Of a stretch of DNA of 64,000 nt, positions 32,294 to 35,260 are shown in pieces. Each line of letters starts with the position of its first letter. Positions within the stretch are counted from its first letter, which is position 1. The notes beneath the pieces were generated by a model. That model was given only the letters and a program-made list of their open reading frames with translations. It searched no databases and had not been told where the DNA came from. Position numbers and translations under genes: made by a program. This stretch comes from a virus: IMG/VR virus record IMGVR_UViG_3300035208_003482. One strand, given 5' to 3'.

Positions 32294-33172
32294 TCAGTCT
32301 AGCCAATCATCGTCTTCATCGTCCTCATCCTCATCGTCTTCATCATACTCATCCTCAGCGTCTTTAAAGACAAATGTTGGATTGTCTCCGGAATTATCTC
32401 CAAGAAGATCATTTAGAGTATTGACGGCACTCTGCCAAGACTGGAGTTTCTTTATAGCAGCCTCAGCTTGCTCAAGGGAAACTCCAGTTCGCCGAGAGAT
32501 AAATGATGCATCAAAGTCTCGCGAATCAACCAGCGTTAGCAATGCTACAGAACCATCGAACAAATCCTGACAGGCATCAGCAAGTTCCTTACTAGGCCAG
32601 CGGCCGCCATCTTCTAGAATCGCTGCGCTAAGAGAACTCAAAGTCTTAGGCTTTTCATCCTCATCAACCTTATCTTTATTGTCATCCTTTAAATCGTAAT
32701 CCTTTGGATTGACACCGTTTTCAAGTTGTAGCTCGAAACGAACAGTCTCAAGAGCCGTACCAAGAGCATTCTCTCCATCACTATCCTCTCCGGTTCCCCA
32801 GAAAGTATCGTAACCACTCATAACAATTGGAGCACTACCAGTCTTGATCAGCCGATCTGCAAGGATCGGATCCTGAAACTTCTTACGAAGAATGTTCATC
32901 ATAACTGAGAATTTGATATCATCCCAATTATCACGAACACCAGAAGTCTTACGTCCGATCTTTCGAGCTTCACGAACAGTTAGTGCATTGGCAATAGACC
33001 GCTGCACGTCCTTTTCCTGATTGTTGAAACCACCAAACTTCAATCCTTGATATGCATGTTCCAAGGTTGGATAGGTAATTCCACCAATGGTAATCGAGGA
33101 CACGTAGTCATTACGCATCCAATCAACATCACCAACAACAATAGGTTTTAGATTGATATTATTCATTGCCAA
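32294..33172 (-). CDS. NADAR (DUF1768/YbiA-like) domain protein with poly-acidic C-terminal tail
   Basis: 'YQGLKFGG...DTFWGTGEDSDGENALGTAL'. C-terminal 'DEDDEDEDDEDDDWLD'. Confidence 0.5.
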   Translation of the reverse strand: MAMNNINLKPIVVGDVDWMRNDYVSSITIGGITYPTLEHAYQGLKFGGFNNQEKDVQRSIANALTVREARKIGRKTSGVRDNWDDIKFSVMMNILRKKFQDPILADRLIKTGSAPIVMSGYDTFWGTGEDSDGENALGTALETVRFELQLENGVNPKDYDLKDDNKDKVDEDEKPKTLSSLSAAILEDGGRWPSKELADACQDLFDGSVALLTLVDSRDFDASFISRRTGVSLEQAEAAIKKLQSWQSAVNTLNDLLGDNSGDNPTFVFKDAEDEYDEDDEDEDDEDDDWLD

Positions 33173-33600
33173 TTCTTTCCTGGTACTACACGACCCTCAG
33201 AGTCTCTTGAGACGATCTCTTGATCACCAAGTTGCTTTACGGTTCGCATAATCAGAGTATCCTGATCATAGGAACCAACTTCAATAATGAGATCGCGAAT
33301 ATTTAGCGCACCCTTTGCGCCAACAGCTGCGATAATCTTCTGACGAAGTTTTTGAATATCTTCAGATGAAATATCGATATCATCTGAAGATGGAACGTTA
33401 CCATTTCGGCGGCGACGATGAGTCTCATCACCGAAATGGTTGAGAACTTCTATAAGATTCATTCTTCGAATCTTCTTCTTCTCAGCCTCATGAAGCTCTT
33501 TGTCAATCTCTTCAATCTCTTCCTTTGCAGCATCAAGAGCACTCATTCCTTTTGCTGCAGATTCCGCGATAAACTTTACAATGAATTCACCCTTATTCAT
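33163..33600 (-). CDS. Hypothetical protein
   Basis: ORF. Confidence 0.25.
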   Translation of the reverse strand: MNKGEFIVKFIAESAAKGMSALDAAKEEIEEIDKELHEAEKKKIRRMNLIEVLNHFGDETHRRRRNGNVPSSDDIDISSEDIQKLRQKIIAAVGAKGALNIRDLIIEVGSYDQDTLIMRTVKQLGDQEIVSRDSEGRVVPGKNWQ

Positions 33601-33859
33601 GAGATCTTTCTACCCTTACTGTGTACTTGATGTAATTTGGATACGCTTTCTGTAATACACATAAATGAGCATCACTTGTAGCGATCTTTGTCTCAGCTGA
33701 TTCGATTGCAGATAAAAGATCATCTGCAATGAAGTCAGACAGCTGATGCTCGTATGCATCTATCTTATATGGCGTAAGAATATGAAAAACCATAGAAGCC
33801 TTTGCACTTTCAGCTTGAATCCAGAACATACCACCACTAGGCTCAGTCGTCAACTTCAA
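33593..33859 (-). CDS. Hypothetical protein
   Basis: ORF. Confidence 0.25.
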   Translation of the reverse strand: MKLTTEPSGGMFWIQAESAKASMVFHILTPYKIDAYEHQLSDFIADDLLSAIESAETKIATSDAHLCVLQKAYPNYIKYTVRVERSHE

Positions 33860-34364
33860 TTATCTCTGAAAGATTCTTTCTGAATTCTTCCGGAACTTTT
33901 AATTGAGGCATCCACCGGACACCGTCCTGTACCATATTTTCCAGACCCAAGGCAAGCTGCAATCGTTGCGTTAACATCATTGGCAGCCACTTGCTGCCAG
34001 ATTTTACCAAAAAGATTCCTGAATCCGAATCATCGGTCCAGTCATATTGGAAACCAACTCTTGTTGCTGAATCTAGAACTTCGCCTTTTTGATCCTTAAA
34101 CCCAATGACAGCTGCGATTTCCAGATTATCTGGATCTTGATTTAGTGCTGATAATAGACAGCACATGATTCCGTTCTGACCCAGAGCCTCACCGTACCAC
34201 AGCGGCACGGAACTGACAACACCTTTTTCATCTCGAAGATTCAACGCCGGTTTTGCCAAGAGGTCTTCATGGGTGACGGAAACTTTCCCAATTGAGAATG
34301 GGGTAGCTCCCAAGTCCTTGCAAACCTTCCGTGTTAACTCACGGCACAATTCTATTTCCCTCAT
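33843..34364 (-). CDS. Hypothetical protein
   Basis: ORF. ATGA overlap with the upstream gene. Confidence 0.25.
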   Translation of the reverse strand: MREIELCRELTRKVCKDLGATPFSIGKVSVTHEDLLAKPALNLRDEKGVVSSVPLWYGEALGQNGIMCCLLSALNQDPDNLEIAAVIGFKDQKGEVLDSATRVGFQYDWTDDSDSGIFLVKSGSKWLPMMLTQRLQLALGLENMVQDGVRWMPQLKVPEEFRKNLSEIIEVDD

Positions 34365-35260
34365 GCGAACTCCTGCATAATTGAATCATTAACACTTACA
34401 AGTGCTCGAATGTTCGTTGTAGAATCTTCTATAAATCCCCACTTACCACTGTCACGATACGGACATCCAGTTACCCATGTGCCATGTTCTGGAGATATGT
34501 GAAGTAATGCTGCTAAAATATCATGCATAGCTTTTCCGCCAGGATGTTTCATGCAATACTTTTCCATTCCATTGATCATGAGATCAAGTCCTGGATGTTT
34601 ACCTTTCGGTATCTGAGAAATGGTAAATCGAGCAGAGTCATCCTTGGGGATCCAGAACCAATGACAAACATTCTTTCCAACCATTTGAATCTGTTTAGCT
34701 GGGTTATCTGAAAGAACAAGTAATCTTTGAGCTGCTTTAGGATCTCCATTGAGATTGAAAGTCTCAACCGTTTTCTTACCAGAGAATTTAGGAAGACATA
34801 ACTCTTGAGGTACAATATTTGATCCTACGAATCCTCCCTGAAGAGTCCATCGATCAAATAGTTTTTCATTTGCAACCCCATCGAAGATATTCTCTGACTC
34901 AGTTGATTTCACAATCTTGTGAATGTTCTTAAGTGGTCCACCGGTTAGAAGATCTCCTCCTGCTGTTCTTGAATAGATACCTGCGAGAGTGTCATCAGGA
35001 TCACTAGGATCAATTTGTCCTAACCACTCGTAGTAATACCCTCCAACTCTAGACTTTCCATCATCTTTAACCTCAGCGCCAACTGGAATATCAGATCTGC
35101 CAGAAAGCTTGAGAACCTTCTTCACGAGACCAATCTGATCTCTTCCACCAGGGAAGACTGTAACACCCTGAAGATCAAACTTCGGATGTGTACACATAAG
35201 AGCTAACGTCCAAAGATCATCAGGATCCCCAGTCTCAATATCAATATGCAACTTTCTCAT
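34361..35260 (-). CDS. Inosine-uridine nucleoside hydrolase-like protein
   Basis: N-terminal 'HIDIETGDPDDLWTLALM' resembles the IUNH DxDxxxDDxxA signature. Confidence 0.4.
   Translation of the reverse strand: MRKLHIDIETGDPDDLWTLALMCTHPKFDLQGVTVFPGGRDQIGLVKKVLKLSGRSDIPVGAEVKDDGKSRVGGYYYEWLGQIDPSDPDDTLAGIYSRTAGGDLLTGGPLKNIHKIVKSTESENIFDGVANEKLFDRWTLQGGFVGSNIVPQELCLPKFSGKKTVETFNLNGDPKAAQRLLVLSDNPAKQIQMVGKNVCHWFWIPKDDSARFTISQIPKGKHPGLDLMINGMEKYCMKHPGGKAMHDILAALLHISPEHGTWVTGCPYRDSGKWGFIEDSTTNIRALVSVNDSIMQEFA

Follow-up and report, generated by a model that had tools for sequence, protein, structure and literature searches.

A NADAR-domain protein with an altered catalytic cleft in a conserved gene string of huge phages, and a mobile nucleoside-hydrolase-like gene beside it

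Five co-oriented ORFs on the minus strand fill positions 32294-35260 of the window, as we call the whole 64,000-nt stretch of viral DNA analysed here. The last of them (32294-33172) encodes a 292-aa NADAR-domain protein, and the first encodes an IU-nucleoside-hydrolase-like (IUNH-like) protein. An earlier note had described this block as five co-oriented genes with overlapping starts and stops. Both statements held: the ORF list shows the five ORFs to be translationally coupled, and the peptides quoted in that note (DIETGDPDDLWTLAL, WGTGEDSDGENALG, and the terminal DEDDEDEDDEDDDWLD) are all present in their translations. ATGA overlaps were found at three junctions (83-aa gene/IUNH-like gene, IUNH-like gene/173-aa gene, and 145-aa gene/NADAR gene), and the ~66-aa and 145-aa genes overlap by 8 nt. 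The coupled string comprises seven genes rather than five, with an HU-like gene and an 83-aa gene added upstream; the HU-like gene overlaps its successor by 20 nt and holds this position in all relatives. The order of the string is HU-83aa-[IUNH]-173aa-~66aa-145aa-NADAR with a hairpin at the end, and the five-ORF block is its 3′ part (Table 1).

Table 1 Features of the seven-gene string and its borders. Positions refer to the window.
Feature	Position	Strand	Remarks
Repeat-rich 174-nt intergenic region	35819..35992	-	candidate promoter/operator for the string, located upstream of its first HU gene
HU/IHF-like DNA-binding protein, 109 aa, first gene of the string	35489..35818	-	PF00216 41.9 bits (cutoff 22.4); phrog_379
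83-aa conserved clade-specific protein	35257..35508	-	ATGA overlap with the IUNH-like gene
IUNH-like protein, divergent, nucleoside-hydrolase fold, 299 aa; accessory insertion of the subclade	34361..35260	-	
173-aa conserved clade-specific protein	33843..34364	-	same slot in all relatives
Small conserved ORF	33593..33859	-	88 aa at most; probable start M23 at 33793 (66 aa)
145-aa conserved protein	33163..33600	-	same slot in all relatives, L017 included
NADAR catalytic-fold core	32717..33166	-	residues ~3-152, numbered from TTG at 33172
Lineage-specific helical (HTH-like) C-terminal module of NADAR	32387..32647	-	residues 176-262
Disordered poly-acidic tail of NADAR	32297..32386	-	conserved tip DDWL(D)
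Terminator-like hairpin	32248..32274	-	directly after the NADAR stop; 10-bp stem, 6 G-C pairs
Second HU/IHF-like gene, 110 aa, downstream flank of the string	31897..32229	-	PF00216 33.3 bits

GTTATAT occurs three times in the intergenic region upstream of the string, together with the palindromes GATCATATGATC and AGATCT. A strong sigma-70 match was not found in this region, whose sequence suggests a regulatory role as promoter or operator. The hairpin, whose T-run is weak, probably marks the end of the transcription unit. Homologs of the 83-aa protein (37-69% identity) occupy the same slot in the relatives L002, L003, L009-L012, and L168, and the protein had no match in Pfam, PHROG, NCBIfam, or PADLOC. 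The 67 homologs of the 173-aa protein are all unannotated and without a Pfam domain, and the family profile matched nothing in the PDB. Homologs of the small ORF (65-80 aa) align only from residue 22 or 23; therefore, its product is probably 66-78 aa long. It had no family match in Pfam or PHROG and was not detected in L012. In the alignment, the 145-aa protein is helical/coiled at its N-terminus, carries an RRRR patch and an acidic linker, and has a C-terminus that appears winged-helix-like; its Pfam and PDB matches were at chance level only.

Apart from the IUNH-like gene, the order of the string was identical in every relative found carrying one of its genes (L001, L002, L003/L008, L009-L012, L017, L168, L205, and L206). 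These relatives are IMG/VR viral contigs and metagenome contigs of 320-454 kb, and the identity of their NADAR proteins to that of the window goes down to ~38%. In this fixed-order string, two HU-like genes flank the NADAR gene and the small unknown genes. The second HU-like gene is kept downstream of NADAR in all relatives, with a variable insertion slot between the two; only this slot and the IUNH-like gene vary in content. The string belongs to the backbone conserved in a clade of huge phages (about 320-454 kb) and is not a variable island.

Among the genes of the window are PHROG-type phage genes, homing endonucleases, genes for RNA repair, and Apyc1, and DksA and ClpP genes adjoin the block. 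The metabolic genes split CoaBC, TANGO2, and YqeY also lie nearby. Neither in the window nor in 12 related loci did a neighbouring gene show an ART or DarT domain. A variable counter-defence island was rejected on two grounds, the fixed gene order in all relatives and the distance of 27 kb from the block to the nearest known anti-defence gene, the bona fide Apyc1 of the window.

Profile searches bore out both enzyme families named in the earlier note. The NADAR protein matched PF08719 with 76.3 bits (cutoff 35.1; E=4.2e-21; residues 25-148) and phrog_1017 with E=6.5e-27, while the IUNH-like protein matched PF01156 (IU_nuc_hydro) with 38.8 bits, a narrow margin over the cutoff of 34.2 (E=1.1e-09). 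Since the NADAR relatives begin with MNNI, translation most likely starts at the ATG at 33166. YbiA and SCO5665-type NADARs gave its best sequence and structural matches: against the PDB, YbiA (2b3w) was found by sequence (E=3e-12), and 2b3w (E=2.9e-7) and 8bau (E=1.2e-5) were found by Foldseek. The AlphaFold2 model of the core had pLDDT above 90 and a YbiA-like alpha+beta fold. However, the top NCBIfam model, TIGR02464 for the riboflavin-intermediate N-glycosidase, scored 69.4 bits, under its equivalog-domain cutoff of 73.7. Identity to any GenBank phage NADAR was at most 37%, over the core only.

To describe the active site, we used 187 NADAR sequences (33 of the family and 154 others) together with YbiA and P. 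nicotianae reference fragments. The ribose/phosphate pocket residues of the references are the EH-motif Glu (Pn E43/C7 E88), Lys (K50/K95), and Asp and Trp (D130/W133). The ADP-ribose-binding residues E38, K45, R70/R74, D122, and W125 are retained in the NADAR protein of the window. Every family member has E38, K45, and W125, and 32 of 33 have D122; the columns of these four residues are universal or nearly so in the 154 other NADARs. The earlier note had made its case hang on the conserved catalytic Glu/Asp. For the EH-motif E38 and D122 this expectation was upheld, but no Glu, Asp, or His of the last strand was found in the family, where the position is Met118 in 32 of 33 members and Leu in one. 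Met fell in this column whether the alignment was anchored on the upstream T-G or on the downstream D..W. Elsewhere the column holds Glu in 78 of 79 genome NADARs and, in the other viral NADARs, Glu (48), His (6), or Leu/Asn/Met/Gln (21). In SCO5665, E167Q and E167D abolish activity (PMC12945103), and NADAR of E. coli C7 is crippled by D171A/N (PMC11543638). Hydrolysis by the present protein is not assured, because the essential strand Glu is replaced by Met.

The family has an invariant signature of its own, R20, D22, R70, G120, Y121, and G128. Its cleft motif reads W-M-R20-N-D22-Y in place of F-L-S-N-F-Y, and the spacing from R20 to E38 equals that from the cleft Ser to the EH-motif Glu in SCO5665 (18 residues; PMC12945103). 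Lys115 of C7 is needed for rescue from DarT1; all 33 members of the family have Arg70 in its column, where 72 of 75 other viral NADARs have Lys.

The C-terminal module consists of four helices in the AlphaFold2 model (residues 181-186, 195-213, 222-229, and 233-256). Its HTH matches were all sub-threshold (10 of 18 members matched DUF4423, the best with E=0.0019), and no PDB match was found. Among 1.84 billion proteins, it was represented by 15 clusters, all linked to NADAR. Residues 260-292 had pLDDT below 50, and Asp and Glu account for 21 of the last 45 residues. At the tip, one subclade has DDW[LF]... and another DDQS[RT][ILM]D. The poly-acidic tail that had been taken for DNA-mimic-like is thus present, but, being predicted to be disordered with a short conserved tip, it would resemble an SSB-type interaction tail more than a folded DNA mimic. 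In the relatives P0225, P0226, and P0232, the NADAR core is decayed while the C-terminal module is kept, suggesting that catalysis may be dispensable.

Phage NADARs of the AdfN type are documented anti-DarTG1 counter-defence proteins (PMC11257639), a precedent for the idea, put forward in the earlier note, that this protein reverses DarT-type DNA ADP-ribosylation. Removal of guanine-ADP-ribose has been seen with every phage NADAR assayed to date, and several of them overcome DarTG1 (PMC11257639; PMC11125620). Like AdfN/T4 gp30.3, NADAR-Bas32, and NADAR-Bas60, which take guanine-linked ADP-ribose off DNA and overcome DarTG1 (PMC11257639), the present NADAR is a phage-encoded orphan with no adjacent toxin, and it has the core fold and the E-H...K and D..W pocket motifs in common with AdfN-type enzymes. 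Unlike AdfN, a core-only protein with a His at the strand position, it has Met there, the family signature, and an extra ~85-residue HTH-like module with an acidic tail. Its gene also belongs to a fixed operon of genes specific to the clade, not to a set of early accessory genes. The Glu that defines YbiA (E125) and SCO5665 (E167) is the residue replaced by Met here (PMC12945103). DarG1 (BC4488-type) antitoxins belong to the same superfamily, and they offer precedents both for a catalytic acid that migrated within the strand (C7 D171, not E173) and for an added nucleic-acid-binding extension (PMC11543638). However, the present NADAR has no adjacent DarT or other transferase, no Asp at the D171 equivalent, and Arg in place of C7 K115; its extension is C-terminal and helical, while that of DarG1 is an N-terminal basic beta/alpha element.

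The nucleoside-hydrolase fold of the IUNH-like protein was confirmed by an AlphaFold2 model and fold searches, and its family profile matched 19 solved nucleoside hydrolases (best E=1.5e-9). RihA, IU-NH, and yeast Urh1 are its closest structural relatives; its identity to canonical Ca2+-dependent hydrolases (RihA/YeiK, IU-NH, Urh1) is only 14-21%. In place of the canonical D-x-D-x-x-x-D-D, its N-terminus carries D7-x-E9-T-G-D12-P-D14-D15, almost invariant in 121 sequences; D14-D15 aligns with the canonical DD pair, and the counterpart of canonical D10 may be E9 or D12. H246-D247 (canonical H241-D242) is present in 120 of the 121 sequences, and N169 (canonical N168 of the E-F-N motif) in all of them. 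In contrast, the canonical 5′-OH ligand E166 is not kept: the position is Thr167 (Thr in 110 and Ser in 10 of 121), and an insertion of ~13 residues lies just upstream, before the F-N motif. The invariant, family-specific motifs K-N-V-C-H and R..G-x-W-G are outside the canonical nucleoside-hydrolase motif set. XopQ, which has the PF01156 fold, destroys an ADPR-derived TIR immune signal and blocks type VI Thoeris (bioRxiv 10.64898/2026.06.15.732069), in agreement with the earlier suggestion that nucleoside hydrolases can destroy immune signals. The IUNH-like protein has its fold and Pfam family in common with this XopQ/HopQ1 2′cADPR hydrolase, a nucleoside-hydrolase scaffold repurposed for a larger-than-nucleoside substrate (bioRxiv 10.64898/2026.06.15.732069). 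It is not specifically XopQ/HopQ1-related, being no closer to these proteins than to ordinary nucleoside hydrolases.

The IUNH-like gene occupies the operon slot in the window, L001, L002, and L168. It lies ~9 kb off in L009/L180 and ~35 kb off in L169/L205, with the rest of the string intact; in the remaining relatives, no copy of it was detected in the ~17-21 kb retrieved around the block. No conserved partner was found in 36-38 independent IUNH neighbourhoods; one of 36 holds NADAR and one holds Apyc1. The family has more than 500 homologs and is enriched in huge phages (19 of 34 IMG/VR contigs exceed 200 kb), to whose contigs it is largely confined, and no match was found in ~50,000 GenBank phage records. 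As an accessory gene, the IUNH-like gene floats between positions, and one subclade inserted it into the operon. Scattering of the genes in related phages, which would have spoken against an anti-defence locus, thus applies to the IUNH-like gene; NADAR and the unknown genes are syntenic.

The reading that we prefer, and to which we give an even chance, is that the string is a huge-phage backbone, the NADAR protein a rewired ADP-ribose N-glycosidic enzyme, and the IUNH-like protein a separate mobile accessory. The NADAR protein would recognise ADP-ribose joined N-glycosidically to a base and, like AdfN, would most likely strip it from guanine or cytosine of phage nucleic acid that host transferases of the DarT1, ScARP, or YarT type had modified. 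D22 would take over the acid role of the strand Glu that is now Met118. The HTH-like module and the acidic DDWL tail may tether the protein to DNA or to basic DNA-binding partners, for which the flanking HU-like proteins and the 145-aa protein are candidates. The IUNH-like protein would be a Ca2+-type ribosyl hydrolase with its metal and ribose ligands kept in variant form. Its 5′-OH region is remodelled (E166 to Thr and the ~13-residue insertion), which makes a plain nucleoside an improbable substrate; by analogy with XopQ, our leading guess is a ribosyl-linked signal or an NAD-derived metabolite. Anti-defence genes seldom hold a fixed backbone position, which counts against this reading.

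It is unlikely, though less so than the readings that follow, that the NADAR fold no longer hydrolyses and instead serves a nucleoid-associated complex of the phage as an ADP-ribose-binding or purely structural subunit, whose functional parts are the module and tail. The Met in 32 of 33 members, at a position where equivalent mutations kill activity, fits such a role, as do the degenerate-core relatives that retain a module limited to this family and the fixed placement of the block between two HU genes beside DksA and ClpP. However, at least 10 pocket residues are invariant and so are the new R20, D22, G120, and Y121, which indicates selected remodelling rather than decay. Moreover, T4 AdfN, which has His in this strand position, is active (PMC11125620; PMC11257639).

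Less likely again is a dedicated counter-defence island, in which NADAR (DarT-type reversal) and the IUNH-like protein (destruction of ADPR or nucleotide signals) act together. The two genes lie side by side and show translational coupling in the window, L001, L002, and L168, AdfN and XopQ are precedents for the respective folds, and both genes lie in recombination patches relative to a 99%-identical phage. In two unrelated huge phages, the IUNH-like gene is also found a few kb from Acb5 or Apyc1. Against joint action stand the distances of ~9 or ~35 kb in some relatives and the lack of a detected IUNH-like gene within ~17-21 kb around the block in others, the single NADAR and single Apyc1 among the 36 neighbourhoods, the fixed backbone nature of the string, the loss of the essential strand Glu, and the remoteness of the Apyc1 gene of the window. 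Of the anti-defence locus proposed in the earlier note, the enzyme families and the biochemical logic stand, but the block is fixed in order and the IUNH-like gene is unlinked to NADAR outside one subclade. NADAR and the IUNH-like protein are plausible counter-defence enzymes, not a proven anti-defence island.

Metabolic housekeeping, with NADAR as a YbiA-type N-glycosidase clearing reactive riboflavin/nucleotide intermediates and the IUNH-like protein as a nucleoside/nicotinamide-riboside hydrolase salvaging base and ribose for the replication of a very large genome, is improbable: the near-cutoff TIGR02464 score, the JGI label "ribA/ribD-fused" of relatives, the structural closeness to RihA, IU-NH, and Urh1, and the nearby CoaBC, TANGO2, and YqeY genes suggest it, but no riboflavin or NAD-salvage gene turned up among 58 window ORFs scanned, the YbiA-defining Glu and the 5′-OH ligand are lost and the loop adjacent to the latter is remodelled, bacterial IUNH homologs have no adjacent ribokinase or nucleoside transporter, and an HTH-like module with an acidic tail has no place in a small-molecule enzyme.

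A bolder form of the preferred reading is an equally long shot: the HU-to-NADAR operon would be a DNA-tethered ADP-ribose surveillance complex of huge phages, with the acid moved to D22 or supplied by a partner, and the IUNH-like protein of the subclade would be the first phage nucleoside-hydrolase-fold destroyer of ribosyl-linked immune signals, for example the cADPR isomers of Thoeris, in the way that XopQ serves plant pathogens. Phage NADARs have newly been recognised as a class of counter-defence protein, and those assayed are core-only enzymes whose key position is Glu, Asp, or His. The present one is a fixed backbone gene of huge phages in which the key residue is replaced, the cleft motif rewritten, and a private helical module and acidic tail added; at stake is whether the mechanism tolerates a relocated acid or the fold has turned into a reader. 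The IUNH-like family is a large uncharacterised group and, given XopQ, a candidate destroyer of TIR-derived signals.

In the comparison with the 99%-identical phage, 162 of the 167 differences fell in recombination patches (NADAR, the IUNH-like gene/p173, and one other region), which fits allele shuffling of host-interaction genes. The pN/pS values of 0.14-0.23 in the same comparison indicate purifying, not positive, selection.

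The genes for the NADAR protein (PF08719) and for the IUNH-like protein (IUNH; nucleoside-hydrolase fold, PF01156), with three small genes between them, had been described in the earlier note as a five-gene unit and read as a counter-defence island directed at ADP-ribose or nucleotide signals. All five co-oriented minus-strand ORFs and the three quoted peptides were found, their junctions are ATGA or short overlaps, and both family assignments exceeded the Pfam cutoffs. However, the coupled unit does not start at IUNH, since the string begins two genes upstream with an HU-like gene and an 83-aa gene. 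About evenly poised, in our estimation, is the reading that this string is a DNA-associated backbone operon ending in a rewired, ADP-ribose-recognising NADAR, joined in one subclade by a separately acquired, divergent ribosyl hydrolase. The NADAR would most plausibly guard phage nucleic acid against base ADP-ribosylation, and the hydrolase (IUNH) would have been gained on its own and inserted into the operon. The intergenic region upstream of the first HU gene may be an operator or promoter.

Coordinates of the features of the gene string, the patches differing from the closest relative, and other genes of the window.
Feature	Coordinates	Strand	Remarks
Intergenic region 5' of HU gene	35819-35992		174 nt; GTTATAT three times in tandem; palindromes GATCATATGATC and AGATCT
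HU-like gene	35489-35818		PF00216; first of string
83-aa gene	35257-35508		second of string
IUNH-like ORF	34361-35260	-	299 aa; Pfam IU_nuc_hydro 38.8 bits, cutoff 34.2, E=1.1e-9
173-aa ORF (p173)	33843-34364	-	
Small ORF	33593-33859	-	88 aa at most; probably 66-78 aa
145-aa ORF	33163-33600	-	
NADAR ORF	32294-33172	-	292 aa; Pfam NADAR 76.3 bits, cutoff 35.1, E=4.2e-21
10-bp hairpin	32274-32248		directly after NADAR stop codon; string ends there
Second HU-like gene (HU2)	31897-32229		after NADAR
Patch 1	32166-32951		HU2 start, intergenic region, NADAR from residue ~74 on
Patch 2	33996-34245		p173
Patch 3	34495-35117		IUNH
Patches 4, 5	40926-41418, 41831-42365		p189, p179, flavoprotein gene
Apyc1 homolog	62585-63451	-	PF23023 103.9 bits, cutoff 50
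864-aa vault-domain protein	22144-24738	-	shoulder domain PF11978 97.9 bits; vault repeat PF17795; no PHROG match
Full TnpB (IS605 OrfB / Cas12f-like)	38486-39682, 2431-3576	+, -	
TnpB fragment	42512-42973	+	
RecD/UvrD-like helicase	12379-14652	+	split by LAGLIDADG/Hom_end intein
Three free-standing LAGLIDADG genes	100-987, 47731-48507, 56750-57811	-, +, +	one adjoins the NAD-dependent ligase gene
RNA-repair genes	46445-47686, 15672-16280, 52651-53520, 19305-20399, 49544-49957	all -	RtcB, RNA ligase, Thg1-like 3'-5' polymerase, nucleotidyltransferase (phrog_388), AAA_33 kinase-like protein
PheRS N-terminal-domain protein, split CoaBC (Flavoprotein, DFP), TANGO2	7289-8365 (-), 41542-42231, 43095-43820, 44581-45306 (-)		

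The 83-, 173-, ~66-, and 145-aa proteins had no significant match in Pfam, PHROGs, NCBIfam, PADLOC, or PDB profile searches, and none of the 67 members of the 173-aa family is annotated. Matches of the small block proteins to Tim44, BEX, and WG_beta_rep were below threshold and were regarded as chance.

A sequence search with the NADAR protein returned Escherichia coli YbiA (2b3w, E=3e-12) and the NADAR of P. nicotianae (8bau), and Foldseek matched the AlphaFold2 model of the core (residues ~10-152, pLDDT >90) to the same two structures; the TIGR02464 score was 69.4 bits, below the cutoff of 73.7. The alignment comprised 33 members of the window's NADAR family, 75 further NADARs from viruses and 79 from bacteria or archaea, plus two reference fragments. 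E38, H39, Q42, K45, K98, T111, W125, G126, and R145 (numbered from the TTG at 33172; translation probably starts at the ATG at 33166) did not vary in the family and were universal or almost so in the other NADARs, and D122 was present in 32/33 family members and all other aligned NADARs. The residue in the column of YbiA E125 defines NADAR subfamilies (Glu in YbiA, Asp in DarG1, and His in T4 gp30.3; PMC11125620). In two enzymes it proved essential: D171A/N crippled E. coli C7 NADAR (PMC11543638), and E167Q and E167D abolished the activity of SCO5665 (PMC12945103). This column held Glu in 78 of the 79 genome NADARs and Met in 32 of the 33 family members. The catalytic Glu/Asp set of the NADAR is consequently kept in part: the EH-motif E38 and D122 remain, whereas the last-strand Glu is replaced by Met.

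Elsewhere in the cleft, the F-L-S-N-F-Y motif has become W-M-R20-N-D22-Y in the family, R70 replaces the Lys that corresponds to C7 K115, and N-N/G is G120-Y121. The R20/D22/R70/G120/Y121 signature was invariant in the family and essentially absent from other NADARs. R20 stands where the substrate cleft otherwise has its "highly conserved Ser", and its distance from the EH-motif Glu that follows (18 residues) equals that of the Ser in SCO5665. Because the new residues are invariant, the alignment argues for a site that was remodelled rather than decayed, and we infer that D22 may supply a relocated catalytic acid. Among the 75 other viral NADARs, the E125 column held Glu in 48, His in 6, and L, N, M, or Q in 21; these 21 (including those of loci L014-L016, L021-L024, and L029-L033) kept the canonical F-L-S-N-F-Y. 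Only 1/79 bacterial-genome NADARs lacked Glu, Asp, and His at this position, and Glu-less NADARs appear from these alignments to be a specifically viral phenomenon. GenBank phage matches covered the core only (≤37% identity); GTDB genomes likewise contained the core only and no full-length family member, and thus yielded neither a host nor a prophage copy.

The core leads through an acidic linker into a module of four helices (residues 181-256) and then a tail; 21 of the last 45 residues are D/E, and the conserved tip differs between two subclades (DDW[LF]... versus DDQS[RT][ILM]D). With disorder predicted for the tail, its reading as a DNA mimic was set aside. The module gave no PDB match and only sub-threshold helix-turn-helix matches (DUF4423 in 10/18 members). 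It occurred in 15 of 1.84 billion cluster representatives, always downstream of a NADAR core, so that the idea of a mobile domain with other architectures was rejected, as was a relationship to the 145-aa protein (hhalign probability 0.4%). The NADAR of locus L017 has the same active-site signature with a different, non-acidic extension. In three of the 15 (the full-length relatives P0225, P0226, and P0232), the core E-H...K and D..W motifs are gone and the helical module is intact, which suggests that the module functions independently of catalysis. These relatives would suit a NADAR acting as a non-catalytic subunit, either ADP-ribose-binding or structural; with the invariant signature of the remodelled site on the other side, we consider this unlikely.

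The order [~800-aa protein]-HU-83-173-~66-145-NADAR-HU-181-DksA-ClpP-~650 was constant across the relatives (L001, L002, L168, L003/L008, L009, L010, L011, L012, L205, L206, and L017), whose NADAR identity extends down to 38-39%; the closest, L001, has 99% nucleotide identity. In contrast, IUNH occupied the slot between the 83- and 173-aa genes only in L001, L002, and L168. It lay ~9 kb upstream of NADAR on the L009/L180 contig and ~35 kb off the block, close to an Apyc1 (anti-Pycsar nuclease) homolog, on the 454-kb contig; no IUNH was detected in the flanks fetched for the remaining relatives. When 748 ORFs from 38 IUNH neighbourhoods were clustered, no partner recurred in more than five loci, and targeted tblastn of 36 neighbourhoods found NADAR in 1, Apyc1 in 1, and RtcB in 2; on these results, a conserved partner gene for IUNH was rejected. 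Thus, the fixed order expected from the earlier note holds for NADAR and the small genes but not for IUNH; the string is backbone and IUNH a mobile accessory gene, paired with NADAR in one subclade only. A cooperative NADAR-IUNH anti-defence island is accordingly quite improbable, even with a real precedent by analogy for destruction of a signal: XopQ (PF01156) acts on 2'cADPR, in which it splits the ribose-ribose bond, and is able to block type VI Thoeris (bioRxiv 10.64898/2026.06.15.732069). The phage IUNH family resembles XopQ no more than it does ordinary hydrolases. With its Apyc1 homolog, the window does carry a genuine counter-defence gene, but 27 kb away from the NADAR block.

The positions flanking NADAR form a variable insertion slot in relatives (L009:8701-9462, L011:8857-9744, L003:9522-9998, L168:9985-10386, and L206:9254-9697). 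L009 has a SpoU-type methylase there and L011 a radical-SAM protein, the rest being unknown genes. Between NADAR and HU2, the window has no such insert, just a 64-nt gap that contains the hairpin.

The divergent hydrolase of the backbone-operon reading retains motifs of the canonical metal/ribose site: D14-D15 (the D-D pair), L-x-N112 (L-T-N), F-N169 (F-N168), and H246-D247 (H241-D242). Its N-terminal cluster, D-x-E-T-G-D-P-D-D, differs from the canonical one, and the 5'-OH ligand E166 is replaced by Thr just after a ~13-residue insertion; from these three features, the substrate is probably not a plain nucleoside. Metabolic housekeeping by NADAR and IUNH is very doubtful beside this variant site, and two contexts gave no support for bacterial IUNH homologs in nucleoside-salvage or defence loci. 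Each of the two proteins is a new variant within a known family, and their functions are directly testable with existing assays. Residue 201 of IUNH (34658-34660), in the K-N-V-C-H-G motif, is Trp in the window and Gly in 115/121 homologs, including the 96%-identical protein of L001. The 454-kb contig (L169) carries a 55%-identical Apyc1 copy ~2.6 kb from its IUNH-like gene, and in L005, another huge phage, the IUNH-like gene adjoins PNKP, Rnl1, a second RNA ligase, and an Acb5-family gene.

Compared with L001 over 18.5 kb (98.97% identity), 162 of the 167 differences fell in five patches and five outside, and most genes were identical. Synonymous divergence inside the patches was ~0.08-0.12, and the patches are a recombination mosaic in which alleles of NADAR, IUNH, and the other patch genes were swapped. 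Their pN/pS gave no support for positive selection on NADAR and IUNH (0.23 and 0.14, respectively; p173, 0.02). The swapped alleles are suggestive of host-interaction genes; the chance of both NADAR and IUNH falling in patches was roughly estimated at ~0.06.

That the window derives from a huge phage is well supported, though not proven from the window alone: genes for capsid, portal, or terminase were not found in it, so the phage label rests on gene content and on the IMG/VR membership of relatives, which comprise IMG/VR viral contigs and metagenome contigs of 321, 446, and 454 kb. Nucleotide search of 30000-37900 against 50,697 GenBank phage records gave 0 matches, an exact look-up of the NADAR protein returned no entry, the neighbouring 649-aa protein had no tblastn match in phages, and the 649-, 492-, and 814-aa proteins had no PHROG or Pfam match. 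The window (GC ~38%; no tRNA genes found) encodes a topoisomerase, a RecD-like helicase with an intein, an NAD-dependent ligase, RtcB, a second RNA ligase, a Thg1-like protein, a nucleotidyltransferase, MT-A70, DksA, ClpP, a split CoaBC, TANGO2, two TnpB and a fragment of a third, several LAGLIDADG endonucleases, the Apyc1 homolog, and a protein with major-vault-protein domains, an unusual find in a phage. The RNA-repair toolkit is scattered. The PheRS-domain, CoaBC, and TANGO2 genes are metabolic or translation-related and are kept upstream of the block in relatives. The TnpB gene at 38486-39682 lies between the metallophosphatase and 814-aa genes, where L002 carries no insertion.
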